A stretch of 64,000 nt of DNA, from positions 3,573,704 through 3,637,703 of the forward strand of contig OZ253535.1 in NCBI GenBank assembly GCA_965262465.1. Reading direction: 5' to 3'. How positions within the stretch are numbered: the first letter of the stretch is position 1; each line of letters starts with the position of its first letter. Both the position numbers and the translations under genes were made by a program. Source of the stretch: an uncultured Pseudohongiella sp. (GTDB lineage: Bacteria > Pseudomonadota > Gammaproteobacteria > Pseudomonadales > Pseudohongiellaceae). Shown piece by piece: positions 39,296 through 54,438 of the stretch. The notes beneath the pieces are model-generated. The model did not search any database. It saw only the letters and a program-made list of their open reading frames with translations, and was not told the origin of the DNA.

Positions 39296-40690
39296 ATGTC
39301 AGACCACAGCACGAGAAAATTGCTATCGATTCTGCTTCTCCTTACGAGTCAGTTCGTATTCATTGGTGGAAGCGCCGGCCAGGAAGCGGCAGAAGCAGTT
39401 GGCACACCAGAGGCTGAAGGATTAGAAGAAGATCGCACGGCAGTCATGTATGTGGATATACCGTTGGTTTATGAAGCAGGTACAGATCCAGTGCTTCCTC
39501 CCTTCGACTACGGGGAAACCATCAACGGTGAACCAGACGAAGCTGCGCTGCAAACCTTAGCGAACTATGAAAACTCTCTACAAGATATTGAAGCCGCCGG
39601 CGGTGCCTGGGATCCCGCGCTCATAGAACAGCTTTCCGCGCTCGGAAACCTGCAACAACAACTTGGTGATTATGCGGCAGCGGTGGAGACATTCGATCGA
39701 GCCATGCACGTCAATCGCATCAATGGTGGTTTGCACACCACTGACCAAATCCCAATCGTTGAAGAACTCATTGAAAGTTACATGGCGGTGGAAGATTGGG
39801 AGAGTGCTGATCTGTATTACAACTATCTCTTTTTCATTCAAACCAAAGCCTTTGGTCCAGAAGATCCTCGAATGATTCCGGTGTTCGCGCAGCTGGCGGA
39901 ATGGCACATGCAAGCGTTCAGCTTGGGTTATGGCGGTGAAGCGCTGGGACTGCGACTAAGCAATGCGCAAATTCTGTTTGATGTTGCTGCCCGCATGGTG
40001 TTTCTACATTTTGGTAGTAGCGATGAGCGCTTTGTGCCTTATCTGCGCAATATCGCTGACTCTGCATACTTGGTTGCGCAAAACCCGGAGATCATGTCGG
40101 CCATTGATCGGGCTACGTTTCGCAATACTCAAGAGCTACTAGCAGCCAGATTGAATCAACCACAACCAGTCGCGCCCGCTGGATACCGGGTGGGAGAAAG
40201 TGCATTGCAAGAAGTCGTAGCCGCATACGAGCGGGCAGGCGATGATGTTTTTGCCTTGGCAGAAGCCCATGCCAATTTGGGTGATTGGTACATAGTATTT
40301 GAACGTCGACGCATTGCTGATGAGCATTACAAGCAAGCGTGGGACTTGTTAGCCGAGCAGGAAAACGGGGAAGAGCTGCTCAATCGTCTGTTTGGTCAAG
40401 TTACTCCACTCCCTACTTTTGTCACCGAACCTCGCGCCATTCTGCGGCGCGGAACTGAGCTGTTGTCTCCTGCAGATCTGCAGGAAGGCATGGCTGATCT
40501 TAGCTTCACCGTTACACGTAATGGTTCAGTAAGAAATGTTGTATTACTGACAGAAGAGACTCCCGAGAATACCGGTCAAGTAACAAGAGTTGCTCGCGAA
40601 TTACGCCAAAGCCGGTTCCGCCCAATAGTGGTTGATGGCGCGGCGGTCGAGTCCGATGACAACCTCGTTAGAATCCGGTTTTGGTACTAA
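39296..40690 (+). CDS. exported or anchored helical-repeat protein with a TonB-C-like C-terminal domain
   Basis: N-terminal signal or anchor RKLLSILLLLTSQFVFIGGSAG. The central region is helical and TPR-like. The C-terminus GMADLSFTVTRNGSVRNVVLLTEE...VTRVARELRQSRFRPIVVDGAAVESDDNLVRIRFWY follows the TonB_C pattern (G.v.v.f.v...G.v.nv.v......l..aa..a....rf.P....G.pv......v.i.F). Confidence 0.5.
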   Translation: MSDHSTRKLLSILLLLTSQFVFIGGSAGQEAAEAVGTPEAEGLEEDRTAVMYVDIPLVYEAGTDPVLPPFDYGETINGEPDEAALQTLANYENSLQDIEAAGGAWDPALIEQLSALGNLQQQLGDYAAAVETFDRAMHVNRINGGLHTTDQIPIVEELIESYMAVEDWESADLYYNYLFFIQTKAFGPEDPRMIPVFAQLAEWHMQAFSLGYGGEALGLRLSNAQILFDVAARMVFLHFGSSDERFVPYLRNIADSAYLVAQNPEIMSAIDRATFRNTQELLAARLNQPQPVAPAGYRVGESALQEVVAAYERAGDDVFALAEAHANLGDWYIVFERRRIADEHYKQAWDLLAEQENGEELLNRLFGQVTPLPTFVTEPRAILRRGTELLSPADLQEGMADLSFTVTRNGSVRNVVLLTEETPENTGQVTRVARELRQSRFRPIVVDGAAVESDDNLVRIRFWY

Positions 40691-40951
40691 TTTTAACTGG
40701 TTAGAGGTAGCATCGACGGTGTCGGAGCTTCTGTTGTTAAGCAAAGATTAAGGGGTTTTTGTCTACTGTTACGTAGAATATTTTGCAGGTCTGGAATTGA
40801 CTGCGCGGCAGGCTTGAAAAGCCGCGATTGGTCGCTAAAAAGCGCCCAAAAGAGTCGATCTTCGGATTATGTGAAATAAGTAGTTATTTCGTTTAAGCGC
40901 CTTGTTGAGTGGGCTTTTCACTCTGTAGGCCAGGCAGTGAGATTGAAAGCA

Positions 40952-42148
40952 ATGCATCGATTTAAAGTGTTAATAGTGAGCGTATTAGGCTTGGTCCTGG
41001 TGGCATGCCAGTCTAGCCAAAGCAGCACTAGTAGCAGCATGCCGATGCCTCCATCTGCATCTTCCAGCAGCAGTTCCAGCAGTCCAAGTATGCCATCGAG
41101 CAGTAGCTCAAGCAGTTCCAGCCAGAGCAGCTCGCAATCCAGTTCTTCAAGCCAGTCTCAGTCCAGCCAATCCAGCAGTAGCTCGAGCTCCAGCTCGTCT
41201 TCACAAGGCAGCCAGTCGGCAAGTACGGGAGCATCAATTCCCACTGCAAATCTGCCAACTTCCAGCCAACAAGGACAGAGCAGCAGTCAGGCATCAAGCA
41301 GTCAATCGGGCCAGCAGCCCGGCGGACAAGATAGCCGCAGCAGCTCAATTCCTGGAGATCAGCAGCAAGGTGGGGGACAGTCGTCATCCACCACAAGTGG
41401 CCAGGAACCGGGCCAGGCAGCAGGAACCGAGTCTCGATCACCTGGCGAACAGGGAAATGGAGGCCAAAGTGGGAGAGATGGCTCCACTGGAGACCTAAAT
41501 AGTGGTCAAAGTGGGAGTCAGGGCCAATCTGGCGGCGTTTTAGGGCGGCCAAGTGGGAATTACAGCCTGGAAAACTTGCCTGGCGGCAGCCAAAGTGGGA
41601 CAGATAGCCAGCAAACTGCTGGTGGCGGTGGCCAGCAACAGCAGAGTCCAGGAGGATCTGATGGTCGGCAACAAGTCCCTGGTGGGTCAAGTGGTCAATC
41701 CACTGCCAGCACGGGAGGCGCATCAACTGCCGCAGAACGTGCAGCTATTTTGGATGAACGGTTACGCCGCGGATATGAAACATTTGATGGCTTTATATTG
41801 AGTGAACGTGAGCGTGCTCAAAATGAAAGCAATGCCGCGGGCAGTGTTGCCATCGGCGGTGATGCTGGCGGCGGTGGCGGCGGTCAAAACCAACCACAAA
41901 CTATGGAAGAAGCAAGCTCGTCTACTCCGACTTCTGGAGTGGTTGCGGCCACTGCGAATTCAATGCCTTCTTCCAGTCAGGAAGAAGTTGAAACCTTCCC
42001 TCCACCTGATGACATTCCAAGTGGACGGGATGACGATGTAGTTGCGCGGCAGATTCGAGAAGCCGCGATGACAGAACCAGACCCAGAATTGCGCGAAGCA
42101 CTTTGGGAACAATACAGAGTTTACACAGGTATTGGTGACGAACAATGA
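40952..42148 (+). CDS. extremely Ser/Gln/Gly-rich lipoprotein with an ordinary-composition C-terminal domain
   Basis: Signal and lipobox MHRFKVLIVSVLGLVLVAC. About 250 aa are low complexity (poly-Ser, then SGQ/GGQ-rich). The C-terminal part AAERAAILDERLRRGYETFDGFILSERERAQ ... DDVVARQIREAAMTEPDPELREALWEQYRVYTGI has normal composition. ATG 40952 was chosen over the GTG at 40937. Confidence 0.6.
   Translation: MHRFKVLIVSVLGLVLVACQSSQSSTSSSMPMPPSASSSSSSSSPSMPSSSSSSSSSQSSSQSSSSSQSQSSQSSSSSSSSSSSQGSQSASTGASIPTANLPTSSQQGQSSSQASSSQSGQQPGGQDSRSSSIPGDQQQGGGQSSSTTSGQEPGQAAGTESRSPGEQGNGGQSGRDGSTGDLNSGQSGSQGQSGGVLGRPSGNYSLENLPGGSQSGTDSQQTAGGGGQQQQSPGGSDGRQQVPGGSSGQSTASTGGASTAAERAAILDERLRRGYETFDGFILSERERAQNESNAAGSVAIGGDAGGGGGGQNQPQTMEEASSSTPTSGVVAATANSMPSSSQEEVETFPPPDDIPSGRDDDVVARQIREAAMTEPDPELREALWEQYRVYTGIGDEQ
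41015..41215 (+). repeat. low-complexity Ser-codon tract (AGC/AGT/TCN) inside the lipoprotein gene
   Basis: Encodes SSTSSSMPMPPSASSSSSSSSPSMPSSSSSSSSSQSSSQSSSSSQSQSSQSSSSSSSSSSSQGSQS. Lower-grade Q/G/S-rich sequence continues to about 41720. Confidence 0.85.
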
Positions 42149-43329
42149 GAATGCCTTTGAAGCAGTTTTTTGGAATTTTACTGTTGGCGTTGTTTACCAC
42201 GGCATGCGCCACTCACACCGTTAAGACCACTTCGTACACACCCGTTGTGCAAAACAGTCAGGACGTTCCTGAAGATTTGCTTTTAGACGTGGGCGTATCG
42301 ATTTTTGATCCAGGTCTCGATGAGTTGGATGACGATCAAGAAGAAGTGACTAATGGGCAGATCCGAGTAGCGGAAGCACGTTATGCGCCTTATTTGCTGT
42401 CGGAGACTTTGCAGCGTTCTGCCAATTGGGGAATCGTGCGTTTAATGCCGAATGCGAGTAGCCCGATGGATGTGCTCGTTACAGGTACGATCTTAGAGTC
42501 CAATGGCGAATCAATGGCGGTACGAGTCGAAGTGAAAGACTCGAGAGGACAGCTCTGGTTCACCAAGGAATATCAAGAAGTCATTAGCCAGTTTAGCTAC
42601 GACGCACAACAGCGGCAGAAAAGCGATCCGTTCCAAGTAATCTACAACAAGATCGCTAACGATTTGTTGGCGTATCGAGAATCAAATCTCGATAGCCAAG
42701 ACATTCGAGAAATTCGCACCGTATCTGAAATGTTGTTTGCACAACGTTTTTCAGAAGCAGCGTTTTCTGACTATCTGCAAGTTGACCGCGACGGCAACTA
42801 TCAACTGGCCGCACTGCCTGCAGAAAATGATCCTTTATTAAATCGAATTCAAGACATTCGTGAACGTGACTTCATGTTCATCGATACAGTGCAGGATTAC
42901 TACGCAACTTATGTTCGGCAGATGCGTTTGCCTTACGATTCTTGGCGCGAACAGAGTTATCACGAAACCATTACTCTTAGAGAGTTAGAAGCGTCAGCAC
43001 GACGTCGTTTTATCGCCGGTACGGCAGCTGTAATTGGCGGCCTGGCTGCTGCTACACAGGGTGGTACATACGGTGCACAAGCGAGTGGTGCAGTTGGTGT
43101 AGGAGCAGGCGCGTATCTCATCAAGAGTGGATTCGATCGACAAGCAGAAGCGCGAATGCATATGGAGGCTCTGGAAGAGCTTGGCCAATCATTAGAAAAC
43201 GCTGTTGCTCCGCAAGTGATTACTCTCGACGATAGAACAATCACACTGTCTGGTTCAGTTGAAGAACAGTACGACCAGTGGCGTGAAATTCTGGCAGACC
43301 TCTATGCCGAAGAATTAGGTCAGTTGTAA
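42145..43329 (+). CDS. lipoprotein of unknown function with a Gly-zipper hydrophobic segment
   Basis: Lipobox LALFTTAC. ATGA overlap with the upstream stop. Late hydrophobic Gly-rich segment FIAGTAAVIGGLAAATQGGTYGAQASGAVGVGAGAYLI. Confidence 0.6.
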   Translation: MRMPLKQFFGILLLALFTTACATHTVKTTSYTPVVQNSQDVPEDLLLDVGVSIFDPGLDELDDDQEEVTNGQIRVAEARYAPYLLSETLQRSANWGIVRLMPNASSPMDVLVTGTILESNGESMAVRVEVKDSRGQLWFTKEYQEVISQFSYDAQQRQKSDPFQVIYNKIANDLLAYRESNLDSQDIREIRTVSEMLFAQRFSEAAFSDYLQVDRDGNYQLAALPAENDPLLNRIQDIRERDFMFIDTVQDYYATYVRQMRLPYDSWREQSYHETITLRELEASARRRFIAGTAAVIGGLAAATQGGTYGAQASGAVGVGAGAYLIKSGFDRQAEARMHMEALEELGQSLENAVAPQVITLDDRTITLSGSVEEQYDQWREILADLYAEELGQL

Positions 43330-43387
43330 CGATTTAATTAAAGGCTGAGAAATCGGCAAGTGATGGACACAGCCGGTAGACCTGCAC

Positions 43388-44935
43388 ATGTCAGAGAACG
43401 AACTCAACAATACAGATCAATCTGCTCTGGGTAATGCTGACCAATTAAGTGAAGCAGAGCGCATTGCGCAACAAATAGCGCCTCCCAAAAGTCAGAAACC
43501 TTCTCCCATAATGTGGTTAGGCCTCGGCGGTCTGTTGATCGTCGCGTTGCTGGTAATTTTCGTTCTGCCTTCCTTAGTCACCGAGTATGAATTACCGCTT
43601 GAGCGCCGCACGGAAGTTGCTAACACCGTGGTTCCCGCTACAACGGCTGAGCCAGAAGTCACAATATCTCCTTTCGAAGAAGCGCAGCGAGCCCTGCAGC
43701 GCAAAGATGCACAAGATACCTTGGCTGAATTGTTGGACCTGCAGTCAGAACTCGATCTGCTCGAAGTTAGTCAGTGGGGACAAGAAGCGTACGATGCGGC
43801 TTTGCAAGAAGCTTCTATTGGTGATGAGTACTACCGTACCCAAGATTTTCTCTTAGCTACAGAGTCTTATGCGAGAGGCAGAGATGGGCTTACGGAATTA
43901 GTCGAGTCAACGCCCGAAGTACTTGCGAGAATTTTGATTGATGCACAAAACGCCTTGAGTGCCGCTGATTCCGATTTAGCACAAGACCGTTTCTCACTGG
44001 CTCTAGTACTTGACTCAAACAATGAAACTGCACAAATCGGTTTGGAACGAGCCCAAGCGTTGGATGAAGTGACCCGCTTAATGGCAGAGGCGGACGATCT
44101 ATTTGAAGACGGTGAATTGGAAGCTGCGAGAGAGTTGTATGATCAGATTATTCAACTCGACGGCTACAACGAAGCAGCACCAGAAAAGATTGCAGCGGTT
44201 GATGCACAACTTAGAGAAAACGAATTTTCTCGCATCATGTCCGAAGGCTTCGCATTACTTGAAGCAGATGATCCTGAACAAGCTATCGCAACATTTCAAC
44301 GCGCAGCAAATCTGGGAATTAATCAAGACCAGGCACAAGCTGCTATTGTGCAAACCGAAACACAGGTTGCCAATTCACAAATCAATGCACTACGCGCGCA
44401 AATCGATTCTGCTGAAGCAAGTGAAATGTGGGCAGATGCGGTAACCGCCTATGACGGTGTGCTGGCGATTGATCCGAATCTCACGTTTGCATTGGAAGGT
44501 AGAGTCAATGCAAACCAACGCGCCAATTTAGATGCCTTCTTGGTTAACGCCATTACCAACCCAGAGCGGTTCGGAGAAGACGATGTGTTTGAAGAAACGC
44601 GGGGTTACTACTTCGTTGCGCGTGATCTTCCTGACCCAGGTCCTCGATTGGAATCGCAGCTCGATGAGTTAGAACAACTTCTGATTGATTCTCAAATTCC
44701 AATTGAAGTGAGTTTAACTTCAGACAATCTCACTGATGTGACCTTGTTGCGAATAGGAAACATAGGTCCGTTTGAACAGCACACTTTATCTCTCAAGCCC
44801 GGACGCTATGTTGCAGTAGGAAAACGAGCAGGCTTTCGCGATGTAAGAGAAGAGTTTGTAGTGGGGTTTGGACAAACTCCTGATGCAGTAGTTGTTCGAT
44901 GCACTGAGCGCGTGGTCGGCGCAAGCGGACGATAA
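43388..44935 (+). CDS. bitopic membrane protein with a periplasmic TPR-like repeat region
   Basis: One TM segment (IMWLGLGGLLIVALLVIFVLPSLV), then repeated A/L/E/Q-rich helical pairs (e.g. FEDGELEAARELYDQIIQLDGYNEAA, EADDPEQAIATFQRAANLGINQDQA, EMWADAVTAYDGVLAIDPNLTFA). Confidence 0.6.
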   Translation: MSENELNNTDQSALGNADQLSEAERIAQQIAPPKSQKPSPIMWLGLGGLLIVALLVIFVLPSLVTEYELPLERRTEVANTVVPATTAEPEVTISPFEEAQRALQRKDAQDTLAELLDLQSELDLLEVSQWGQEAYDAALQEASIGDEYYRTQDFLLATESYARGRDGLTELVESTPEVLARILIDAQNALSAADSDLAQDRFSLALVLDSNNETAQIGLERAQALDEVTRLMAEADDLFEDGELEAARELYDQIIQLDGYNEAAPEKIAAVDAQLRENEFSRIMSEGFALLEADDPEQAIATFQRAANLGINQDQAQAAIVQTETQVANSQINALRAQIDSAEASEMWADAVTAYDGVLAIDPNLTFALEGRVNANQRANLDAFLVNAITNPERFGEDDVFEETRGYYFVARDLPDPGPRLESQLDELEQLLIDSQIPIEVSLTSDNLTDVTLLRIGNIGPFEQHTLSLKPGRYVAVGKRAGFRDVREEFVVGFGQTPDAVVVRCTERVVGASGR

Positions 44936-47012
44936 AGCTGTGACAAACTCAGATCACAACTCAACAGATAATGGGGCACTTGACCCCATAGTTCCGATTG
45001 ACTTCACGCCACATGAAGTCAAAGCGAAAAAATTCACTTATCAGTTCCATTGGTTTCACGCAGTGGTTGCAGTCTTTGTACTGCTGTCATCTGTGTCGGG
45101 CTGGTTCGTACTGACGGCGAAATCAGTTTTTGTAGAAGTAGATCCAATCACCGCGTCGATAGAAATTGAGGGTGGGCTGAATTTTCGCTTGGGTCAGCGT
45201 TACCTGATACGTGCAGGCTCATACGAGATCACGCTGCGCAACGAGGGCTATCACGACAGCGTCACTAGCCTCATAGTGGGTTCCGATGCTGCGCAGACTC
45301 ATCCGTTTACCATGAGAAAATTGCCTGGATTGGTAAGCATCAACACCATCGCCATGACCGGCGCTCGTGTGCAAATCGATGGCGTGGATATTGGTGAGAC
45401 ACCACTGGTAGATGTGCCAGTCGAACCCGGAGAGCGCCAGCTCACAATCAGTAATGATCGTTATCTGGACTATGGCACCACCATAGAAATAGAAGGTCGT
45501 TCAGTTCCCCAAACTTTCGAAGCAACCTTAGAACCCGCTTGGGCAACCTTGTCGTTTACCACTTCCCCGGCTGGCGCTGACATCATCGTCGACGGTGAGA
45601 CTGTCGGCCAGACTCCGTTTAATGCAGAAATTCTGCAAGGTGAGCGGGATGTCACATTGAAGCTTGCTGGCCATAAAGCATGGCAGGAAGAGTTTGATGT
45701 CATTGCCGGCGAAGATTTTGTGGTTCCCTCAATCAACCTGGAACCGGCCGATGGCTTGGTGTTTATTCAGAGCAATCCTTCAGCTGCCAATGTCACGATA
45801 GGTGGAGAATTTCAGGGCCTAACACCACTTGAAGTAGCGTTAGCTCCGGACCAGAACCATGAACTGACCTTCTTCAAAAACGGCTATGAAATGACTCGCA
45901 GCACAGTGCGGACTGCCCCCAATGAAGAAAAGTCTGTTGTTGTTTCTCTGAGTCCGGTTACTGCCAGTGTGCAGATCGTGAGTGAGCCGGCAGATGCTGA
46001 GCTCTACATAAATGGAGAATTGTTGGGCTTGGCGAATCAGACTGTGGAGTTGATGGCGGTCAGTCAACAAATCGAGATTCGTAAAGAAGGTTACGTCCCT
46101 TATAACACCGAGTTCACATCCCGCCCCGGTTTGGATCAGGTCATACGAGTTACGTTAAAGTCGCTAGAGCAAGCGCGCCTGGAACAGATACAACCGGTGA
46201 TCACTACCGTTGCAGGGCAGTCATTGAAATTGTTCTATCCAGGTGACTTCACCATGGGCGCATCGCGCAGAGAAGCTGGCCGACGTCCGAATGAAGCGCT
46301 ACGAGATATTAAGCTGGAACGACCGTTCTATATTGGTTACCAAGAGGTCACAAACGCACAATATCGATTGTTCGATGGAGAGCATAACTCCGGCACCATA
46401 CAAGGGCTTACTCTTAACAACGAATCACAGCCCGTCGTTCGCGTAACCTGGGATCAGGCTGCTCTGTACTGTAATTGGTTAAGTGAACAGGAAGGGCTAC
46501 CGGTCTTTTATCAAGTCGAAGGCGAGGAAGTAGTTGGTTTTAATCCTGAGTCAACTGGCTATCGCCTACCTACCGAAGCGGAATGGGCTTGGATCGCTCG
46601 AACCGATGGCACTGGCAACACCTTAAAGTACCCTTGGGGTACTCAACTTCCACCACCGGAAAACGCCGGCAATTTTGGTGATGTAACAGCACAAGCCTAT
46701 CTAGGCGAAGTGATGTTTGACTACAACGATGGTTATTTCGCCACTGCACCCGTTGGATCTTTTGCTGCTAACCACTATGACATTTTTGACATGGCAGGTA
46801 ATGCATCAGAGTGGGTACACGACTATTACGGTTCTGCAGGAAGTCTCGGTGTAGAGATAGATCCGTTAGGACCGGAACTTGGACAATTTCATACCATCCG
46901 TGGCTCGAGTTGGGCGCATGGTGCGATAACAGAAATGCGATTGTCATTTCGTGATTTTGGTGTAGAGCCAAGGGATGACGTTGGCTTTCGCGTTGCAAGA
47001 TATCTCGAATAA
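44892..47012 (+). CDS. membrane-anchored protein with 5 PEGA-like repeats and a C-terminal FGE-sulfatase (SUMF1/GldK-like) fold domain
   Basis: TM segment FHAVVAVFVLLSSVSGWFVLTA. Five repeats of the type TLSFTTSPAGADIIVDGETVGQTPF...L..G...V.L...G. C-terminal FTMGASRRE...RPFYIGYQEVTNAQYRLF...RLPTEAEWAW...GNASEWVHD...IRGSSWAH. The start is either TTG 44892 (overlapping upstream) or GTG 44940. Confidence 0.8.
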   Translation: MFDALSAWSAQADDKAVTNSDHNSTDNGALDPIVPIDFTPHEVKAKKFTYQFHWFHAVVAVFVLLSSVSGWFVLTAKSVFVEVDPITASIEIEGGLNFRLGQRYLIRAGSYEITLRNEGYHDSVTSLIVGSDAAQTHPFTMRKLPGLVSINTIAMTGARVQIDGVDIGETPLVDVPVEPGERQLTISNDRYLDYGTTIEIEGRSVPQTFEATLEPAWATLSFTTSPAGADIIVDGETVGQTPFNAEILQGERDVTLKLAGHKAWQEEFDVIAGEDFVVPSINLEPADGLVFIQSNPSAANVTIGGEFQGLTPLEVALAPDQNHELTFFKNGYEMTRSTVRTAPNEEKSVVVSLSPVTASVQIVSEPADAELYINGELLGLANQTVELMAVSQQIEIRKEGYVPYNTEFTSRPGLDQVIRVTLKSLEQARLEQIQPVITTVAGQSLKLFYPGDFTMGASRREAGRRPNEALRDIKLERPFYIGYQEVTNAQYRLFDGEHNSGTIQGLTLNNESQPVVRVTWDQAALYCNWLSEQEGLPVFYQVEGEEVVGFNPESTGYRLPTEAEWAWIARTDGTGNTLKYPWGTQLPPPENAGNFGDVTAQAYLGEVMFDYNDGYFATAPVGSFAANHYDIFDMAGNASEWVHDYYGSAGSLGVEIDPLGPELGQFHTIRGSSWAHGAITEMRLSFRDFGVEPRDDVGFRVARYLE

Positions 47013-47056: not shown

Positions 47057-47881
47057 ATGAAGCAAGGCTCGCTTTACGAAACATTTTTCCAACTAGTAGC
47101 ACTGATCTTTTGTGTGATCATTGTGCATGCAACCTATGTCACCGTGATCCGGCCTAATGCCGATCTCATTCAAGAGCAGCAAACACTTCTGCAGCAGCAA
47201 GATGAAAACTTTGTTCCGGAACGGTCTGTATTCATCATTCTTCGAGATTTCGAACAAGAAACATGCATCATCTTAATGTTCTGGGCTCTGTTCATTATAG
47301 GAATGAAAGCACAGCAAACACTGAAGCAACGTTCTCTATTAGACCGAACACTTATTCAAGTTAATCAGGGCATGAGTATATTGCCCGAAGACGCAAGAAA
47401 TTATGCACGTCCCGTACAAGCACTGCCGGAAAGCGAACAGGATTTCCTGTTAGCCAGGGCGATCACTGCAGGCCTGCATCGCTTTCAAAGTACGCGCAAT
47501 ATTCAGGATGTATCCAACACGGTTAAAGATACATGTGAGACTGAAGCTGACCGAATGGAAACCGAGTTATCGCTGGTGCGATACATCGCTTGGGCCATTC
47601 CTTCTATTGGGTTCTTGGGCACCGTGCGCGGTATCGGTACAGCATTGGGGCAGGCATACCAGGCAGTAAGCGGCGATATCGTGGGGGTGACAGTCAGCCT
47701 GGGCGTGGCATTTAACTCAACATTTGTTGCTCTGGTAGTGAGCATTTTTCTGATGTTCCTGTTGCACCAGCTGCAGCAGTTACAGGATAGATTAGTACTG
47801 GACTGTCAAAACTATTGTGATGAACGGCTTATTCGCCATCTCCAAGTTCCTGATTCGGAATCTGAATTAGCAACCACGTGA
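47057..47881 (+). CDS. MotA/TolQ/ExbB-family proton channel protein
   Basis: 274 aa with two N-terminal TM segments, a cytoplasmic loop, then the family signature YIAWAIPSIGFLGTVRGIGTALGQA and a final TM segment VSLGVAFNSTFVALVVSIFLMFLL. Confidence 0.8.
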   Translation: MKQGSLYETFFQLVALIFCVIIVHATYVTVIRPNADLIQEQQTLLQQQDENFVPERSVFIILRDFEQETCIILMFWALFIIGMKAQQTLKQRSLLDRTLIQVNQGMSILPEDARNYARPVQALPESEQDFLLARAITAGLHRFQSTRNIQDVSNTVKDTCETEADRMETELSLVRYIAWAIPSIGFLGTVRGIGTALGQAYQAVSGDIVGVTVSLGVAFNSTFVALVVSIFLMFLLHQLQQLQDRLVLDCQNYCDERLIRHLQVPDSESELATT

Positions 47882-47905
47882 GACGGCTAAGGCGAGAGAA
47901 ACCGC

Positions 47906-49249
47906 ATGAGCTTTAAAGTCATCGAGCTAAACGACAAAGCCATTAGTGTTGGCGATGAAACGGGAGTGATTATTCGCAGTCCCGGCTTTGCTTTGGCAGA
48001 TGGAAGCGAAGTGCTACTCGGTGAACAAGCGGAAAAACAGGCGCGGTTAAAGCCAACCAATAGTTACAACAAATATTGGCAAGAACTTAATCTCGATCCC
48101 ATCGAGCATGGCAATAACTTTCGCCACCATGCCGATATCGCGTTTGCCCATCTGCAACACCTGGCCGAAGAGGCTGATGTGGGTGCTGATGTAGTAATTG
48201 CAGTACCAGGCAGTTTTTCTCGACAACAACTTTCAATACTTCTCGGACTTTCCCAGCACAGCCCATTCAATATCAGCGGCATTGTCGATTCAGCATTGGC
48301 TGCGGCGCTTGCGTCAGCCAGAACAAGCAATGTTTTGTATGCCGATCTGCAGTTACACCAGGTAGTCATAACGAAACTCACTGCAAAAGAGAATCAACTA
48401 AGTACCAGCACGACAGTGCAGATTCCTGGAGTAGGTAGTCAGAATTTCACTGACCTGGTCATGCAGTTGGCTACGGGTATGTTCATTCAGCAATGTCGCT
48501 TTAATCCGCAACATGACGCTGAATCCGAACAGCAACTTTATAACGAACTTCCGCAGTGGCTTGCGCAAGCGCAACAAGACGGCAATCTAATTCTAGAGTT
48601 AAACGCCGGCGATACGATTCATACGGCAAAAATGCCAATGGATAGTTTGGTAAATAGCCTCAATGGTCATTACAAGACTATCAACAAACAACTTGCTGCG
48701 ATGGCGACAGATCATGATACTCAGTTAGTCGTCAGCAGTTCACTCGCTGAGTTACCTGGTTTTAATGCCAGCCTTCCTGCGTCACTGGACTTGATCATTA
48801 TTGATGACAATGCCGTGAATGAAACTTGTCTTGAGTATCGCGAGTTAATCACTGCGACGGATCAGGGCATAAGTTTGGTAAGTGCATTACCACTTCCAGA
48901 GGGTGGAACTACACCAAACCACAGTGCTGACCAAAAGACTGTAGCGCCTACTCATGTTTTACATGGTAGCCAGGCATTGCCGGTGAACAAGATCAGTATT
49001 GAGAACCACCAAACTATCAACGGCCATAGTGAAGCTGTAAATGTTCTCGCGTTATCGATTGCAGACCTGCCAGAAAATCTTGGCAACATCGCTAAGGAAA
49101 ATGATGGCGTCTATTTTGATAGTGGAGAACTTTCTTATCTACTTAATGGCGTTGCAACAAGCGGTGCGCGCAAGCTCGCCGTAGGCGACCGAATTCAGTT
49201 TAGTGGCAGTAACGATGTGTTGACCTTGATAAGGGTGCGCGATGTCTAG
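47906..49249 (+). CDS. divergent Hsp70/actin-fold protein with degenerate nucleotide-binding motifs
   Basis: VLLGEQAEKQARLKPTNSY, VVIAVPGSFSRQQLSILLGLSQHSPFNISGIVDSALAAALA and GSQNFTDLVMQLATGMFIQQ align with DnaK [61 protein letters not shown] and GGEDFDSRLINYLVEEF. Phosphate-1 (IDLGTTNS becomes IELNDKAIS) and phosphate-2 (DLGGGTFD becomes DLQLHQVV) are not conserved. Confidence 0.6.
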   Translation: MSFKVIELNDKAISVGDETGVIIRSPGFALADGSEVLLGEQAEKQARLKPTNSYNKYWQELNLDPIEHGNNFRHHADIAFAHLQHLAEEADVGADVVIAVPGSFSRQQLSILLGLSQHSPFNISGIVDSALAAALASARTSNVLYADLQLHQVVITKLTAKENQLSTSTTVQIPGVGSQNFTDLVMQLATGMFIQQCRFNPQHDAESEQQLYNELPQWLAQAQQDGNLILELNAGDTIHTAKMPMDSLVNSLNGHYKTINKQLAAMATDHDTQLVVSSSLAELPGFNASLPASLDLIIIDDNAVNETCLEYRELITATDQGISLVSALPLPEGGTTPNHSADQKTVAPTHVLHGSQALPVNKISIENHQTINGHSEAVNVLALSIADLPENLGNIAKENDGVYFDSGELSYLLNGVATSGARKLAVGDRIQFSGSNDVLTLIRVRDV

Positions 49250-50468
49250 CGAACACAGAGCAGCCAGACGTAAATTTAATCCAATAAGCCTGTCTTTTTT
49301 GGACGTTATGTTCTGTGGTTTTGGCGCGGTGATTCTGATTTTCCTTATCCTCGATCACAACAGCACAGTCTCTGATGTGGAATACAACCCGGACTTGCTT
49401 GCTGAGATCAATCTACTGGAAGAGGAAGTGGAGGAAGGGCAACTCGGATTAGTACGTATAAGAAATACCCTATCGGACGTCGACTTCGATGTGGTTGAAG
49501 CGCAAGGCCTGGCACGCCAGATTCAGGAACAGATCGATACTTTTCTGCAGGAGTTGGCGGCGCTCGAAAATTCCAGCGTGGCAACGGTGGAAGATGTGGA
49601 ACAACTGCGAGCAGACGTGCAACAGCTCGAAGAAGAACTGCTTCGCTTGCAGGCCAGTGCTCTGGAACAGGAAGGATCTAGCGTGCGGCAGTTTATTGGG
49701 GATGGCCAGCGACAGTATTTATCCGGGCTCTATCTCGGTGGTCAGCGCATTCTTATCGTAGTGGATGCATCCGCCAGTATGCTGGATGACACCATCGTCA
49801 ACATCATTCGTACCAGCCTCAGGGCTGATGTATATAAGAAAGAAGCGCCAAAATGGCAACGTGTTGTCAAAATTGTCGATTGGATTACCACCCAGCTGCC
49901 TATTATCAGTCGTTATCAGATTTATGCCTTCAATCAAGAGGTGCGGGCCGCCATTCCAGGTACGGAGCAATCTTGGCTAGAAGTAGCGGATCGGGACCAG
50001 CTAAATGAAGCAGTTGAACAGGTGATGGATTTGGCGCCGGAAGGTGGCACGAACTATGAGCGGCTGTTTCGTGAGGTCGCCAACATGTCGCCCCCGCCGG
50101 ACAATATCTTTCTAATTACCGATGGGCTGCCAACGATCGATGATCGCGGGGCCAGGGATCCGCTTATCTCACCAAGAGACAGGTTGGAATTATATGAAGA
50201 CGCAGTCGGGGAGTTATTACAGGGTATTCCGGTCAATATTATATTGATGCCATTGGAAGGTGATCCCAGTGCCGCAGCGGCATTTTGGGAGTTGGCCCAA
50301 TATTCCAGAGGCTCGCTGATTTCCCCGTCCAAAGATTGGCCCGGCGGTGCGTCGGCGGTGGAAGAAGACGAACTGGATGAACCGCGGGATGATAATTCTG
50401 TCGCCCGGGTAGAAAGTACAGAAGAGATTTCGGAAGATTTAGGAGTGTCCTTTCCAACGAATATTTAA
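49242..50468 (+). CDS. bitopic protein: ExbD/TolR-like Asp-containing TM helix, periplasmic coiled coil, vWA domain (paralog 1)
   Basis: N-terminus RAARRKFNPISLSFLDVMFCGFGAVILIFLIL (compare ExbD TPFIDVMLVLLIIF). Heptad-rich residues about 45-145. vWA MIDAS elements VVDASASM, GGTNY, ITDGLP. 8-nt overlap with the upstream gene. Confidence 0.7.
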   Translation: MSSEHRAARRKFNPISLSFLDVMFCGFGAVILIFLILDHNSTVSDVEYNPDLLAEINLLEEEVEEGQLGLVRIRNTLSDVDFDVVEAQGLARQIQEQIDTFLQELAALENSSVATVEDVEQLRADVQQLEEELLRLQASALEQEGSSVRQFIGDGQRQYLSGLYLGGQRILIVVDASASMLDDTIVNIIRTSLRADVYKKEAPKWQRVVKIVDWITTQLPIISRYQIYAFNQEVRAAIPGTEQSWLEVADRDQLNEAVEQVMDLAPEGGTNYERLFREVANMSPPPDNIFLITDGLPTIDDRGARDPLISPRDRLELYEDAVGELLQGIPVNIILMPLEGDPSAAAAFWELAQYSRGSLISPSKDWPGGASAVEEDELDEPRDDNSVARVESTEEISEDLGVSFPTNI

Positions 50469-50484
50469 GTTGGGTAACTAAGAC

Positions 50485-51495
50485 ATGAGCAAGAAAAACC
50501 GCAGAGAAACAGATTCGTTTACCGTGTCTTTCCTGGACGTGGCGTCCTGTGGTTTCGGTGCCATGATCATTCTCTTGATGATCACTAAAAACTCCGACCC
50601 TGTGACCTTGGAGATCTCCGACCTGACCCCAGAGGCCACGGTTACTGAGCTGCAGGAGCAACTATTTGAGATACGTGGTGAAACCACGATTTTGAATCGG
50701 GAACTCAATGCCAAACATGAGCAACTGTCATCCCTGACAGAGCGAATTGCTCGCCTTCGCCGCGATTTGAATGACGTGCAAGGGCGCTTCAATGCCTCGA
50801 ATCAACTCTCAGATGAAATCACTGACGAAGTGGGCCGACTGGCCATCGCACGGCAAACCCTGACGGAGGAAATGCAGCGCTTGTTAGCCAATGTCGCCGC
50901 GCCGGAAGACAACGCCATTGGCGGGGTCCCGGTGGACAGCGAGTACATCATCTTCGTGATTGATACTTCGGGCAGTATGGCCAATACCCCCGGAAACTGG
51001 GACAAAATGCTCGAGGTCATCGACAATACCTTGAACGTCTATCCTGAAGTGAAGGGCATCCAGGTCATGAATGACATGGGTGACTACATGTTTAACACCT
51101 ACCGCAACGAGTGGATTCCGGATACCCCGGGAAGACGTAATCAGATCATTTCCACCTTGCGCTCTTGGCAGCCATACAGTAATAGTAGCCCTGTAGAAGG
51201 TGTGACACGCGCGATTAATACCTTTTATTCCCCGGATAAGAAAATTAGTATCTATGTACTGGGGGATGATTTTCAGCCAGGCGGGTCTATACAGGACGTG
51301 CTAAACACTATTGACCGCATCAATGTGGAAGATGCCAATGGAGACCGCTTGGTTCGCATTCATGGTATCGGATTCCCAACTATATTTATGGGGCCTCCGC
51401 GCTTTCGACAAAGCGCCTATCGCTACACCAATTTAATGCGTGAAATGACGCAACGAAATGGTGGTACATTTGTAGGATTAAACGCGACTCAATGA
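50485..51495 (+). CDS. bitopic protein: ExbD/TolR-like Asp-containing TM helix, periplasmic coiled coil, vWA domain (paralog 2)
   Basis: N-terminus KKNRRETDSFTVSFLDVASCGFGAMIILLMI. Coiled-coil-like residues about 45-135. vWA FVIDTSGSM ... VLGDD. Same architecture as the preceding gene. Confidence 0.7.
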   Translation: MSKKNRRETDSFTVSFLDVASCGFGAMIILLMITKNSDPVTLEISDLTPEATVTELQEQLFEIRGETTILNRELNAKHEQLSSLTERIARLRRDLNDVQGRFNASNQLSDEITDEVGRLAIARQTLTEEMQRLLANVAAPEDNAIGGVPVDSEYIIFVIDTSGSMANTPGNWDKMLEVIDNTLNVYPEVKGIQVMNDMGDYMFNTYRNEWIPDTPGRRNQIISTLRSWQPYSNSSPVEGVTRAINTFYSPDKKISIYVLGDDFQPGGSIQDVLNTIDRINVEDANGDRLVRIHGIGFPTIFMGPPRFRQSAYRYTNLMREMTQRNGGTFVGLNATQ

Positions 51496-51550
51496 GCCAA
51501 GCTGGTGGTCTCAGCGTATAGATGACTGATCAGCCTTGCGAGTGAAGAAC

Positions 51551-52189
51551 ATGAATAGGAATAGACGCAACACAACAATTCAACGAACCCACACTCTGCA
51601 ACATGTGGTTTTGCTCCTGTGTGTTGGATTGCTGGCGAGCTGTGGTGTAAACAATGTCACCATCCAGGGTGAGTTCCCTACGCCTAACATATCCAAGTTG
51701 CCTTTGAGTGTCGCTGTCTACTATGACGACGCCCTGAAAGACTTCACTTACATGGAGTATTCCGAAACAGGCACCGAAGAGTTCAACATTGCGAGTGGTC
51801 AATCTCATGTGCAGTTGTTTAACGCTGTACTGCCTGCCATGTTCAACCAGGTTGTGGAAGTAACTCAGGTTGAAGAAGCTGGCACTCGACAAGTAGATGC
51901 GGTGTTTATGCCGCTGATTGAAGAGTTTCAACTCGCACTGCCAGCAAAAACCAAACTCGATGTGTATGAAGTTTGGATCAAATACAACATGCGCTTGGTA
52001 ACTCCGGAAGGAGATTACATCGCTGATTGGGTGTTAACGTCATACGGCAAAACACCAACTGACACATTTCGTTCTGCTGAAGCAGGTATTAATGAAGCCG
52101 CTGTGGTTGCCTTAAGAGATTTGGCCTCCAGCTTTTCTTTGACCTTTTCACAAGTTCCTGAGGTACGTGACTGGCTTGCGAGTTTGTAG
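51551..52189 (+). CDS. lipoprotein of unknown function
   Basis: Signal and lipobox LLLCVGLLASCG. ATG 51551 was chosen inside the TTG-initiated track ORF. No family recognised. Confidence 0.55.
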   Translation: MNRNRRNTTIQRTHTLQHVVLLLCVGLLASCGVNNVTIQGEFPTPNISKLPLSVAVYYDDALKDFTYMEYSETGTEEFNIASGQSHVQLFNAVLPAMFNQVVEVTQVEEAGTRQVDAVFMPLIEEFQLALPAKTKLDVYEVWIKYNMRLVTPEGDYIADWVLTSYGKTPTDTFRSAEAGINEAAVVALRDLASSFSLTFSQVPEVRDWLASL

Positions 52190-52214
52190 CAAGTTATTCA
52201 GTAGGGGGTTGGTT

Positions 52215-52886
52215 ATGATGAGTGAGCGATACACAACAACTGTTAAGTTATTTTTCGTTCTGGGACTAGGACTTCTAGCCGCTTGTACCAGCACCACTGT
52301 TGATGAATTTAGACAAGGCGAGACTGGCATCGAAAGTGATGAGACAGTGGTGATTCTTGGAAGACGCCAAGCCAGCGACTATGAAACGGATTCAGGCTTT
52401 GTAGAGTGTGTTGGCGATCGCATGGCCCGCGGTGAAAACGCCATCAACATTGTTCCCGAACAAGAATTTATCGATGCTATGTTCCCGTGGTTTGAACCAC
52501 GTACTGCTCCCTTGCGCACGCGCGATCTTGAACAGCTAATGGCTGAAGATGTAGTGGCAAGAAAAATGGGAGAGTTTGGAATTCGTTACATCGTGTGGGT
52601 GGATGGATTTACTGAAACCACTGATCGCCAAGGATCTATTTCTTGCACAATCGGACCAGGTGGCGGCGGATGCTTCGGCTTCGGCACTTGGGAAGATGAT
52701 GCAAATTTTGATGCACGCGTCTGGGACGTCGGGTCTTTAACCAATGTGGGTACAATTAATACCGATGCTTCAGGCCAGTCCTATCTGCCTGCCCTTGTGG
52801 TGCCTATACCACTCATTGCCAGAGTTGAAGCTAATGCCTGTAATCGCTTGGCCGCTCAGCTCAAACAGTTTGTAAACGGTAGTTAA
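52215..52886 (+). CDS. lipoprotein of unknown function
   Basis: MMSERYTTTVKLFFVLGLGLLAACTS has a lipobox. ATG 52215 is preceded by a GGGGG RBS. No family recognised. Confidence 0.55.
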   Translation: MMSERYTTTVKLFFVLGLGLLAACTSTTVDEFRQGETGIESDETVVILGRRQASDYETDSGFVECVGDRMARGENAINIVPEQEFIDAMFPWFEPRTAPLRTRDLEQLMAEDVVARKMGEFGIRYIVWVDGFTETTDRQGSISCTIGPGGGGCFGFGTWEDDANFDARVWDVGSLTNVGTINTDASGQSYLPALVVPIPLIARVEANACNRLAAQLKQFVNGS

Positions 52887-52920
52887 GGAATTAACTACCA
52901 ACCGATCGACAGGTGGCTTT

Positions 52921-54438
52921 ATGCATGTTCTAAGTCTGCGTAACTTGGGCGGTGCAATCATCGCGCAGTTTTCTCTTAAACAACTCTTCTTGATAGTCGT
53001 GGCATTTAGCTCTGCGTCTTTCTTAACGTCCTGTGCAGTTAATCCTGCCACCGGCAGTCCTAACTTGGTGCTAATGGGCGAAAACCGAGAGAAAGAAATC
53101 GGTTTGGAAGAACATGAAAAGGTGCTGGCAAGCCAACCCATTTTGCAAGACGAAGCACTGTTGGAATATGTCACCGAAGTGGGCAACCGAGTCGCTGCCG
53201 CTAGTCACCGTCCAGATTTGGAATACACGTTCACAATCATTGATAGTCCAGCCATCAATGCTATGGCACTACCAGGTGGATACGTGTATGTGAATCGCGG
53301 GCTGCTTACCTTCATGAATACCGAAGCAGAACTTGCTGCGGTAATAGCTCATGAGATTGGCCATATCACTGCACGACACGCTGTACAACAACAGGCCCGA
53401 GGAGCGCTGGCGAATGCTGCTGTTACTGTAGGTGGTTTTGTAACTGCAGTTGCAACAGGCAGTGGTTATGCCGGATCGCAAATAAGTCAGGTTGCTTCAA
53501 TTTGGGCACAAACCGGTTTGAGTGGTTTTGGCCGTGAAATGGAACTGGAGGCTGATAGTCTTGGTGCAGAGTATCTTCTCAAAGCGGGCTACGATCCTTC
53601 GGCGATGATTGAAGTGGTTACTGTGTTAAAGAACCAGGAAGACTTTAATCGCCTGACCACTGGTAGCGGTGGTGGTTACCATGGTTTGTTTGCAACTCAC
53701 CCTCGCAGTGATACCCGTCTGCAACAAGCCATCGCATCAGTAGGTAGTCTGGAAGAATCAGAAGCAACACTAACCGACGACAGTAAGTTCCGCGAACACA
53801 TAAATGGATTAGTGGTTGGTGAGAGTGCGGCCGCTCAACAACAGGATGAACGTAATCGTTACTACGAAACCACCCTCGGATACACCATGGTGTTTCCAGA
53901 TGAATGGAATGTTGAAAATTCCTTTACCACCGTAACTGGTGAAGAAGAAGGCATTGGCAGCTTACAAGTAGAAGCGAGACGACTGCGCGACAATATCGAG
54001 CCTCGGGTTTTTATTCGAGATAACCTCGGCATTACCAATCTGCAAAAATCAGAAGCACTATCCCAATTCCGATTACTTGGTCACACCGGAACCCATGTTT
54101 CACCGGAGACGGGAAACACCGAAAGAGTTGCAGTGATCTACCTGGGCCCGCGTGCATTTATATTCCGCGGAGATATTGCTGATGCCAGCGCTGTTGATGA
54201 AATCGATGAAGTGATGCTGGATTCCATTCGTAGTTTCCGCGCAATTCAACGGGGAGAAACCCTACTGGGTAGCGAATTGAAGCTGCGTTATGTGCAAGCC
54301 TCGGAATTCTTTGATTTCGCTGTGGTGGCTCAATCCAGCAAGATTGCCAATTATCCCGAGGAGACCTTGCGTTTGCTGAATGGATATTACCCCTCCGGCA
54401 ACCCGGAAGCGGGTGACTGGGTGAAGCTGGTCGAATAG
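52921..54438 (+). CDS. M48 family zinc metalloprotease, lipoprotein
   Basis: Lipobox FLTSCA. NAMALPGGYVYVNRGLL...ELAAVIAHEIGHITARH (HExxH) plus downstream ELEADSLG are typical of M48 (YcaL/LoiP/BepA type). It also carries a roughly 230-aa C-terminal extension of unknown type. Confidence 0.85.
   Translation: MHVLSLRNLGGAIIAQFSLKQLFLIVVAFSSASFLTSCAVNPATGSPNLVLMGENREKEIGLEEHEKVLASQPILQDEALLEYVTEVGNRVAAASHRPDLEYTFTIIDSPAINAMALPGGYVYVNRGLLTFMNTEAELAAVIAHEIGHITARHAVQQQARGALANAAVTVGGFVTAVATGSGYAGSQISQVASIWAQTGLSGFGREMELEADSLGAEYLLKAGYDPSAMIEVVTVLKNQEDFNRLTTGSGGGYHGLFATHPRSDTRLQQAIASVGSLEESEATLTDDSKFREHINGLVVGESAAAQQQDERNRYYETTLGYTMVFPDEWNVENSFTTVTGEEEGIGSLQVEARRLRDNIEPRVFIRDNLGITNLQKSEALSQFRLLGHTGTHVSPETGNTERVAVIYLGPRAFIFRGDIADASAVDEIDEVMLDSIRSFRAIQRGETLLGSELKLRYVQASEFFDFAVVAQSSKIANYPEETLRLLNGYYPSGNPEAGDWVKLVE

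Follow-up and report, generated by a model that had tools for sequence, protein, structure and literature searches.

A twelve-gene envelope cluster of Pseudohongiella built around a predicted vWA-bearing ion-driven motor

Introduction

What kind of machine, if a single one, is encoded by the run of co-directional genes at positions 39296–54438 (plus strand) of a 64,000-nucleotide stretch of the uncultured Pseudohongiella sp. contig OZ253535.1 (assembly GCA_965262465.1; the whole stretch is called the window here)? Known functions driven by 5:2 ion motors are flagellar rotation, TonB uptake, envelope integrity (Tol-Pal), gliding, type 9 secretion, and defence by Zorya. The initial annotation of the window, made from the sequence alone, had read the domain mix of this cluster as the vocabulary of Ton/Tol/Agl-type energisers set in different architectures and had found no characterised counterpart. 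Judged from its sequence features, the cluster is a real, widely conserved envelope system, and its motor trio (O6, O8, and O9 below) belongs to a family that was predicted in 2025 (PMC12204202). The claim of no counterpart therefore holds for the function of the system and for its other genes, but not for the motor. The nine non-motor genes, the modular structure of the system, and the kinase/FHA layer of its relatives are undescribed in the searchable literature, and literature searches on the combination of PEGA, FGE, MotA, and vWA returned no other description. On balance, we favour the reading that the genes specify a single machine that spans the envelope and runs on the proton (ion) motive force.

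Within the cluster, 12 plus-strand open reading frames (ORFs) of at least 150 amino acids run in one direction and are labelled O1 to O12. Thirteen genes had been counted initially, but no credible further ORF is found in the only long gap (40691–40951, 261 nt, before O2), and the region has no Rfam match. The domains first called from the sequence (TPR, TonB_C-like, PEGA/FGE, MotA/ExbB, Hsp70 fold, vWA, and M48) were all recovered; O2, O3, O7, O10, and O11 were assigned to no family when the 12 proteins were scanned against Pfam and NCBIfam. Export or anchor signals can be seen by inspection on nearly all products, as claimed, and O7 has no hydrophobic segment. Lipoboxes are present in O2 (LVAC), O3 (TTAC), O10 (LASC), O11 (LAAC), and O12 (LTSC), none of which has an Asp at position +2. 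O4, O5, O8, and O9 each have a single N-terminal transmembrane (TM) helix, and O1 begins with a signal peptide or a signal anchor.

The Motor Proteins

O6 (47057–47881; X5 of the conserved core described below) is a MotA/TolQ/ExbB-family ion-channel subunit (MotA_ExbB, 7.5e-16) and presumably forms a pentameric stator. Its best structural sequence match is TolQ. In an alignment with Escherichia coli TolQ both pore threonines are retained (LGTV and NST, i.e., GTV and (N/A)(S)T), at what we take to be the positions numbered T145 and T178 in TolQ. O6 adjoins the vWA pair in every locus, with O7 intervening in the sub-types that have it.

The partners of O6 are two vWA proteins of 408 and 336 amino acids, O8 and O9. 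O8 (49242–50468; X6, vWA-A) consists of an Asp-bearing trans-pore helix (TM 19–37), a coiled coil of ~130 residues, a periplasmic vWA domain (VWA_2, 6.8e-7), and an acidic tail. Its helix carries the ExbD/TolR-like motif SFLDV, and its metal ion-dependent adhesion site (MIDAS) reads DASAS..GGT..TDG. O9 (50485–51495; X7, vWA-B) is a paralogue of O8 with a like architecture, matching a Pfam vWA family and carrying FLDV in its TM helix (16–34). The N-terminal trans-pore helix with the Asp is SFLDVMFCGFGAV in O8 and SFLDVASCGFGAM in O9. Both proteins have a short basic cytoplasmic tail, the Asp helix, a central stretch of ~115–130 residues that matches coiled-coil-type families only, and a vWA domain with a complete MIDAS. 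No ExbD, TolR, or MotB match was found in the Pfam and NCBIfam scans of the 12 proteins or among the publicly called genes of six remote loci, and no tolR-, exbD-, or motB-like gene is present in any locus examined.

The vWA pair is widespread. An exhaustive HMMER search placed 1171 clusters at 50% identity in the O9 family at E ≤ 1e-3, and 299 at E ≤ 1e-30. In all 30 distant O9 relatives aligned, the Asp of the helix ‘SFLDxxxCGFGA’ and the MIDAS motif DxSGSM...S.SxP...GD(D/E) are invariant. The vWA pair was found in every complete locus, and orthologues of O8, 27–50% identical, occur in every locus.

Two further features of these proteins were observed. At residues ~57–86, O6 has a fourth hydrophobic stretch, CIILMFWALFIIGM, with a conserved D[FWY]EQE just before it, which suggests a MotA-like topology with four TM helices rather than the three-helix topology of TolQ and ExbB. 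O8, unlike O9, ends in a strongly acidic tail (residues 370–408, EEDELDEPRDD...EEISED), which could be a MIDAS ligand itself or an auto-inhibitory element.

A motor of this composition, a TolQ-like protein with a pair of vWA proteins bearing trans-pore helices (TPH), has been predicted in ‘Origin and Evolution of Bacterial Periplasmic Force Transducers’ (Mol Biol Evol 2025, Fig. 4c–d; PMC12204202). In this ‘second family’, which is found in Proteobacteria, TolQ-like genes are tightly linked to heterologous vWA pairs, and AlphaFold 3 (AF3) places the Asp-bearing trans-pore helices inside the pentamer, ringed by threonines. The predicted TPH-vWA-pair motor and the trio studied here share a TolQ-like gene, the absence of tolR or exbD, two Asp-helix vWA genes, and the pore threonines, and every sequence feature stated for the former is found in O6, O8, and O9. 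By extension from the AF3 models of that paper’s own seed, O6, O8, and O9 would form a 5:2 complex with the helices within the pentamer. The paper is confined to the trio of motor genes, to which it assigns neither a function nor a phenotype; PEGA, FGE, Hsp70, and lipoproteins are absent from its text and supplements. Genes O2–O5, the Hsp70-fold/FHA protein, the kinase fusion, and O1/O10–O12 are thus extra in the system described here.

Conservation and Modular Structure

Within the family, one genome per GTDB species was scanned, giving 79 loci. Most of them bear the label Pseudohongiella, Pseudohongiellaceae, or OM182, and the others have generic or different names. All 12 genes are syntenic at one site across these 79 Pseudohongiellaceae genomes, and divergence is broadly graded over all cluster genes, suggesting vertical inheritance. 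The synteny is uninformative on whether the genes are linked to each other, because the hydantoinase gene and the two GT9 genes that flank the cluster are equally syntenic. The relatives retrieved in an initial search with O9 all exceeded 80% identity, and the wider comparison that follows is based on distant representatives.

In the distant genomes, a core of seven genes, O2-O3-O4-O5-O6-O8-O9, keeps its order between unrelated flanks. It was found in Sneathiella marina (Alphaproteobacteria), Thalassomonas viridans, a Methylophaga sp., and two further contigs. The order there is a small secreted protein, a lipoprotein of ~415 amino acids, a bitopic protein of ~484 amino acids, the PEGA-FGE protein, the MotA_ExbB protein, vWA-A, and vWA-B. 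BLASTP identities between the window and these remote proteins are 29–35% for O3, 21–24% for O4, 29–31% for O5, 36–42% for O6, 28–30% for O8, and 32–36% for O9; O2 is ~50% identical over its C-terminal 45 amino acids.

A further 80 loci, with GC contents from 36 to 68%, came from a scan of metagenomes in which the most remote of these representatives served as seeds. Loci were sorted into four types by family hidden Markov models and identities. Type A is the seven-gene core, and type B is the core with an O7 orthologue, always between O6 and O8. Type C adds O10-O11-O12 to type B, with O1 upstream, and is found without the hydantoinase and GT9 flanks. In type D, an O10-like gene follows the type B set, and after it comes an O1-like gene in reverse orientation. 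Because the core, O7, and O10–O12/O1 recur together while the flanks change, all 12 genes of the cluster belong to one nested, modular system. The check proposed with the initial annotation, whether the genes co-occur in other genomes, thus turned out in its favour, since distant genomes have the genes side by side and equally ordered although the flanks are unrelated. The modular structure (the core, the core with O7, and the further addition of O10–O12/O1) and the kinase/FHA layer of the relatives go beyond that annotation.

The view that this is a resident chromosomal system also stands: the cluster occupies a syntenic site, there is no compositional shift in the window and no island signature, and O9 has no match among 72,556 plasmids and 50,697 phage records. 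Genes for a pterin dehydratase, a PALP protein, and ParA lie downstream of the cluster in one sub-clade; these were judged to be ordinary neighbours.

Scaffold and Outer-Membrane Components

The remaining core genes encode two lipoproteins and two TM-anchored proteins. O2 (40952–42148; X1) is a lipoprotein with ~330 amino acids of Ser/Gly/Gln low complexity, including a mucin-like poly-Ser region, and an acidic C-terminal motif, P[ED]DIPxxxxDDxxxAxQIRxAA..E.DP....LWxEYRxYxG. In BLASTP comparisons its last 45 amino acids are 48–52% identical to the first core-cluster gene product of Sneathiella and Methylophaga, and the motif is carried by the first gene of ~35 loci. In one high-GC locus (L083, 1088–3094), it is fused to a trypsin-like protease of 668 amino acids. 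This fusion and the recurrence in ~35 loci suggest that the O2 motif is a docking motif. The low-complexity region of ~330 amino acids is an insertion relative to the orthologues of ~190–250 amino acids outside Pseudohongiellaceae, and its length varies among genomes. A minus-strand ORF antisense to O2 (41028–41726, 232 amino acids) was rejected as an artefact of the repeat. In L083, vWA-B is followed by a gene for a DUF350 protein and by one for a second protease, of the Trypsin_2 family (11585–12460). The protease association of this locus is independent of that with M48.

O3 (42145–43329; X2) is a lipoprotein of ~400 amino acids with no recognised fold and a Gly/Ala-rich hydrophobic segment at residues ~289–330. 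Full-length orthologues, 29–37% identical, are present in all core loci. O3 has no relatives in Pfam, NCBIfam, or the PDB; a family-profile search of the PDB matched only the Gly/Ala-rich stretch, to viral fusion peptides, and a single-sequence AlphaFold2 (AF2) model was discarded (mean confidence, pLDDT, 37).

O4 (43388–44935; X3) is a bitopic protein with its N-terminus inside (TM 46–64) periplasmic TPR-like repeats (TPR_2 match), and a PEGA/CarboxypepD_reg-like domain at the C-terminal end. Its orthologues are 21–37% identical, and the C-terminus of the orthologue in L081 gives weak PEGA/CarboxypepD_reg-like matches. O5 (44892–47012; X4) consists of a TM anchor, four to five PEGA domains (2e-48, in four PEGA stretches), and an FGE-sulfatase domain (8e-39). 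The best NCBIfam match of O5 is GldK/PorK (TIGR03525), at 101.8 bits against a cut-off of 350 and over the FGE domain only. Among solved structures, PorK/GldK (3e-14) and formylglycine-generating enzyme (FGE) itself (1e-13) match this domain almost equally well. We place the catalytic Cys pair of FGE by presumed correspondence to C336 and C341 of the human enzyme (motif RGGS..C....C). All 31 members of the O5 family are without Cys at these positions, the consensus being RGSSWxHGxxTExRxSFRD, and because the catalytic pair is missing the domain is likely to be a binding module, as in PorK, and not an enzyme. An association with peptidoglycan is ascribed to PEGA domains, and a C-type-lectin fold to the FGE/FGS domain (PMC7159879).

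In five loci of one sub-clade (L104, L109, L119, L151, and L160), a gene for an OmpA-family peptidoglycan-binding protein directly follows vWA-B. The protein in L104 (11118–11828) has 236 amino acids and a Gly-zipper-like hydrophobic N-terminus. Small ORFs of 50–105 amino acids lie between the PEGA-FGE and MotA genes of some relatives (L080, 8015–8167; L083, 7932–8093; L085, 6297–6593; L120, 6372–6689). They have no Pfam match, and the window, with a 44-nt gap at this place, has no counterpart.

The O7 Protein and the Kinase/FHA Layer

O7 (47906–49249) is a cytoplasmic protein with the fold of an Hsp70 nucleotide-binding domain (NBD) and a degenerate FHA-like C-terminal beta domain. Its assignment comes from the fold search, which alone was informative: a single-sequence search of the PDB gave no match, and there is no Pfam HSP70 match. 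The AF2 model, built on a 42-sequence alignment, has a pLDDT of 87, and Foldseek aligns it to Hsp70 NBDs with E ~1e-17 and a TM-score of ~0.67 on the target. O7 has the Hsp70 fold but not the Gly-rich loops, ELND and DLQLHQ standing in place of DLGTT and DLGGGT, and its C-terminal domain is FHA-like rather than an Hsp70 substrate-binding domain. Homologues of O7 are all annotated as hypothetical proteins of marine Gammaproteobacteria, and orthologues with 21–32% identity lie between O6 and O8 in ~45 loci.

Many of these orthologues retain, in the alignment, the canonical FHA motifs SRxH(C) and SxxGT(F/W)..NG, and that of L162 matches Pfam FHA at 8e-10. In the O7 family of the window the phosphothreonine-binding motifs SRxH and SxxGT are absent. 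The O4 orthologues of 12 metagenome loci carry an N-terminal Ser/Thr kinase domain, among them L120 (1557–3896; Pkinase, 8e-22) and L153 (1415–4615; 2e-35). Canonical FHA motifs are present in O7 in nine of the 11 kinase-bearing loci that have O7, whereas sixteen kinase-less loci with a full-length O4, the family of the window included, have neither FHA motif; two further kinase-less loci, L090 and L138, are partial exceptions. The conserved neighbours in the kinase-bearing loci include no PP2C-type phosphatase. As read from these motifs, the version in the window has lost both the kinase and the FHA function, and its O7 is probably a scaffold that does not read phosphothreonine and that has likewise lost canonical nucleotide binding.

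The Accessory Module

O1 (39296–40690) is a secreted or anchored TPR protein (TPR_12, 3.5e-7) with a C-terminal TonB_C-like domain. Positions 394–460 of the O1 family profile match structures of the TonB C-terminal domain at ~1e-5, and Pfam TonB_C is found in five of 17 family members, at best with 2.8e-8. When O1 accompanies the cluster outside Pseudohongiellaceae, it precedes the other genes or, in minus orientation, comes next after O10. O10 (51551–52189), a lipoprotein of ~210 amino acids that is often paired with O1, and O11 (52215–52886), a lipoprotein of ~220 amino acids, have no recognised fold. O10 has no Pfam or PDB relative, also in a family-profile search of PDB sequences, and O11 has no Pfam match. 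Orthologues of O10 (24–45% identical) occur in loci without the Pseudohongiellaceae flanks, and those of O11 (34–51% identical outside Pseudohongiellaceae) always come after O10. O12 (52921–54438) is a lipoprotein M48 zinc metallopeptidase (Peptidase_M48, 1.5e-38; HEIGH) with an uncharacterised C-terminal half of ~230 amino acids. Its orthologues, 30–53% identical, follow O11 in loci without the Pseudohongiellaceae flanks.

Gene Junctions and Flanks

The compact layout first described for the cluster was reproduced. O2 and O3 share a 4-nt ATGA overlap (42145/42148), and O7 and O8 overlap by 8 nt (49242/49249). The O4/O5 junction depends on the start chosen for O5: the TTG at 44892 gives a 44-nt overlap, and public gene calls have an O5 of 690 amino acids. 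The remaining intergenic gaps are 16–58 nt long, apart from the 261 nt ahead of 40952. The GC hairpin reported at 54444–54462 exists (GGGCGC-CCACCAA-GCGCCC) but has no T-run, and a better terminator-like site, a hairpin with a T-rich tail, lies at 54497–54518. The transcription unit would thus end on the plus strand within 54444–54518.

The flanks were correctly taken to be housekeeping genes (hydantoinase and GT9), but waaF does not lie immediately to the right. The cluster is followed first by a gene for a T2SSE-family ATPase with an MshEN-type N-domain (54633–56438, plus strand), which the initial annotation does not mention, and only then by the two genes for GT9 heptosyltransferases. This ATPase is an orphan, with no secretion or pilus partners nearby, and is kept in most Pseudohongiellaceae. 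It was rejected as a 13th component, being absent from ~15 Pseudohongiellaceae loci that retain both GT9 genes and unlinked to the cluster elsewhere.

A Proposed Mechanism

In the machine that we favour, O6 would form an ion-conducting ring in the inner membrane, and an O8/O9 heterodimer would insert its Asp helices into this ring, giving a 5:2-type motor that needs no separate TolR, ExbD, or MotB. Ion flow would turn or stroke the dimer, and the coiled coil of ~100–130 residues would carry the motion across the periplasm; ~100 residues of coiled coil would span roughly 15 nm, comparable to the length of four to five PEGA domains. The two vWA heads, each with an intact MIDAS, may then grip an acidic ligand, the candidates being the C-terminal motif of O2 and the lectin-fold domain of O5. 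O5 and O4 would provide a periplasmic, peptidoglycan-associated frame, the lipoproteins O2 and O3 would make up the outer-membrane end, and the output would be delivered at the outer-membrane or peptidoglycan layer. By analogy, the logic resembles that of Tol-Pal or PorLM-PorKN rather than that of nutrient uptake or flagellar rotation.

In the ancestral form, as the co-variation in relatives supports, regulation may have come from the cytoplasmic kinase of O4, with the Hsp70/FHA protein O7 reading phosphothreonine at the cytoplasmic face of the motor and acting as a clutch or brake. With no kinase in the window and with O7 degenerate in its FHA and nucleotide loops, this protein probably serves as a constitutive scaffold here. 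The addition of O1, O10, O11, and the M48 protease O12 suggests that the output in this lineage is the remodelling or turnover of outer-membrane or periplasmic proteins.

Several points weigh against this picture. The motor is supported by its sequence features, while we infer the force path, the scaffold, and the ligand, and the same applies to the stoichiometry, the rotation, and what the vWA heads bind. O6, O8, and O9 are equated with the Idiomarina seed of the TPH-vWA-pair family on the grounds of matching architecture. With its possible fourth hydrophobic segment, O6 may have a MotA-like rather than a TolQ-like topology. At the other end of the machine, O3, O10, and O11 have no recognisable fold, and the cluster contains no gene for a beta-barrel of the outer membrane or for a secretion pore. 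Nor do all versions have a protease link, M48 being confined to one sub-type and trypsin to one locus.

Comparison with Known Systems

The initial statement that a Ton/Tol/Agl-type vocabulary is used here in different architectures is borne out, and the cluster falls outside Ton, Tol, the type 9 secretion system (T9SS), Zorya, and the Agl-Glt core (with its aglR and two short TolR-like genes). With Tol-Pal, the cluster shares an inner-membrane TolQ-family motor, a long periplasmic helical element directed to outer-membrane lipoproteins, a TPR protein, and, in some relatives, an OmpA-type protein. However, TolR, TolA, TolB, and Pal are missing here, and the axle itself bears a vWA output domain, whereas TolA is bound at the side. 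O6 reaches 32.3 bits against TIGR02796 (tolQ; cut-off 221), and the other Tol-Pal components have no match. Against exbB2, O6 reaches 23.5 bits (cut-off 135), and no ExbD is present. Unlike in Ton, the only TonB_C-like domain sits on the TPR protein O1 and not on an SHLS-TM/Pro-rich protein.

The likeness to PorK/L/M/N of the T9SS lies in a non-catalytic FGE-fold protein next to a 5:2-type motor with a periplasm-spanning bitopic shaft. The differences are that the motor is of the MotA/TolQ family and not GldL, that the shaft ends in vWA rather than in the Ig-like domains of PorM, and that O5 is TM-anchored with PEGA spacers and has no lipobox; PorN, the translocon, and T9SS cargo are not found here. 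The Pfam and NCBIfam scans of the 12 proteins gave no match to GldL, GldM, or GldN.

The relatives’ kinase/FHA layer has an analogue in the threonine-phosphorylation pathway of the Pseudomonas H1 type 6 secretion system (H1-T6SS), which comprises PpkA-Fha1-PppA and TagQRST. The shared logic is a bitopic Ser/Thr kinase with a periplasmic sensor, an FHA reader, lipoprotein inputs, and a periplasmic vWA domain. The analogy extends to this layer only, as there are no T6SS genes and the copy in the window is without a kinase.

The Agl-Glt core complex of Gammaproteobacteria consists of gltD, E, G, and C with aglR, Q, and S, and its function outside Myxococcales is unknown (PMC3169522). As described there, it resembles the present cluster in grouping a TolQ-like motor with TPR proteins, TonB_C, and FHA. 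In GltG, though, FHA, TM, a Pro-rich region, and TonB_C are joined in one protein, whereas here FHA is on O7 and TonB_C on O1; AglQ and AglS are ordinary TolR-like proteins, and the vWA pair, the PEGA-FGE protein, and M48 are found only here. No short TolR-like ORF of the aglQ/aglS type is present in the cluster. The comparison with the Glt proteins is one of domain architecture, as taken from their descriptions. Among defence systems, PADLOC gave no significant match for any protein and no system assignment, its sole match being O6 with ZorA (E = 0.0025, 14.9 bits), over the MotA_ExbB core only and without ZorB, C, D, or E. A survey of conflict systems (eLife 2020; PMC7159879) was considered as a possible description of the cluster and does not contain it.

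Alternative Explanations

The simplest objection to a single machine is that the 12 genes are not one system but a three-gene motor among unrelated envelope genes. The 261-nt gap between O1 and O2 permits a separate promoter, and the hydantoinase and GT9 flanks are as syntenic as the cluster within Pseudohongiellaceae. In distant taxa, however, the flanks are swapped while O2–O9 hold their order and O10–O12/O1 reappear with the core, O1 even after a move to the other strand beside O10; these cross-taxon loci largely refute the objection, to which we give hardly any credence. If the genes do work together, the periplasm, which has no ATP, is a place where a motor could supply mechanical work, and the machine could be a quality-control or extraction device that pulls MIDAS-bound, mis-assembled lipoproteins or outer-membrane proteins to proteases. 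This would fit the M48 lipoprotein O12, conserved in the 11–12-gene sub-type with different flanks, the fusion of the O2 motif to trypsin in L083 with a second Trypsin_2 gene after the vWA pair, and the role of vWA domains as peptide-binding co-chaperones of MoxR ATPases (PMC7159879). Yet most seven- and eight-gene versions have no proteases, so that proteolysis is not the core function, and there is no identifiable substrate; we regard the device as unlikely. It seems to us quite unlikely that the cluster serves adhesion to surfaces or gliding in the manner of Agl-Glt, with the motor moving vWA heads or lipoproteins along the envelope for traction or for positioning of a surface polymer. The domain vocabulary is that of the Agl-Glt core (TolQ-like motor, TPR, TonB_C, and FHA; PMC3169522), the vWA lipoprotein CglB is reported as the Glt adhesin (PMC9946355), the authors of PMC12204202 speculate on gliding for vWA transducers, and O2 has a mucin-like poly-Ser region. 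However, an AglQ/S-type TolR, GltG, a large GltD-like TPR protein, and the GltA/B/H barrels are all missing, the architectures differ gene by gene, and the vWA domains, being anchored in the inner membrane, are not exposed at the surface. Moreover, the hosts are planktonic oligotrophs (OM182 clade), of which the close relative LSUCC0112 is flagellated (PMC6606908).

It is very unlikely that the cluster encodes a T9SS-like transport or secretion apparatus, in which an inner-membrane motor shaft energises an outer-membrane-associated ring of the FGE-fold protein. The sequence of FGE protein, motor, and bitopic shaft proteins mirrors the T9SS gene order gldK-L-M-N, and the FGE domain of O5 is closest to PorK/GldK in both NCBIfam and the PDB, but its similarity to true FGE is nearly as strong, and the GldK score of 102 bits stays below the cut-off of 350. 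In addition, O5 is TM-anchored in the inner membrane and is not a lipoprotein, no homologues of GldL/M/N, SprA/Sov, or PorV are present, and a translocon is encoded in no locus. Envelope surveillance or anti-phage defence of the Zorya type, with a 5:2 motor that senses perturbation and signals through kinase and FHA, is highly improbable. Kinase, FHA, vWA, FGS, PEGA, and Hsp70 domains do recur in prokaryotic conflict systems (PMC7159879), and the weak match of O6 to ZorA points the same way. The PADLOC result as a whole is negative, though, and no nuclease or other effector is present; the cluster sits at one syntenic site among housekeeping genes in the 79 Pseudohongiellaceae genomes, with divergence graded across all genes, with no plasmid or phage match for O9, and with no compositional anomaly.

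Significance

The output of each new 5:2 motor has revealed new envelope biology, and the system described here is abundant. It is represented by more than 1100 O9 clusters at 50% identity and is found in every scanned genome of Pseudohongiellaceae/OM182, which are common marine bacterioplankton, as well as in other Alpha- and Gammaproteobacteria. The analysis extends a three-gene bioinformatic prediction to a parts list in which a core of seven genes is joined by two optional modules. The list also has a putative switch made of kinase and FHA domains, and binding modules predicted from the non-catalytic lectin fold and the MIDAS, and it names definite residues for mutation. Culturable hosts include Sneathiella marina and Thalassomonas viridans, both with named genome records, and also Methylophaga sp. 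41_12_T18 if that record comes from an isolate.

As a more tentative proposal, doubtful when taken as a whole, the cluster may represent a previously undescribed class of ion-driven machine. In it, a heterodimeric axle with two integrin-like MIDAS heads would pull outer-membrane lipoproteins or feed them to periplasmic proteases, and the machine would ancestrally have been switched from outside the cell by a periplasm-sensing kinase via an FHA/Hsp70-fold clutch, with an output distinct from those of Ton, Tol, Mot, Agl-Glt, T9SS, and Zorya. Should force indeed be transmitted by vWA heads carried on the rotor, this would be the first stator-type motor with an effector domain on the inner dimer itself.

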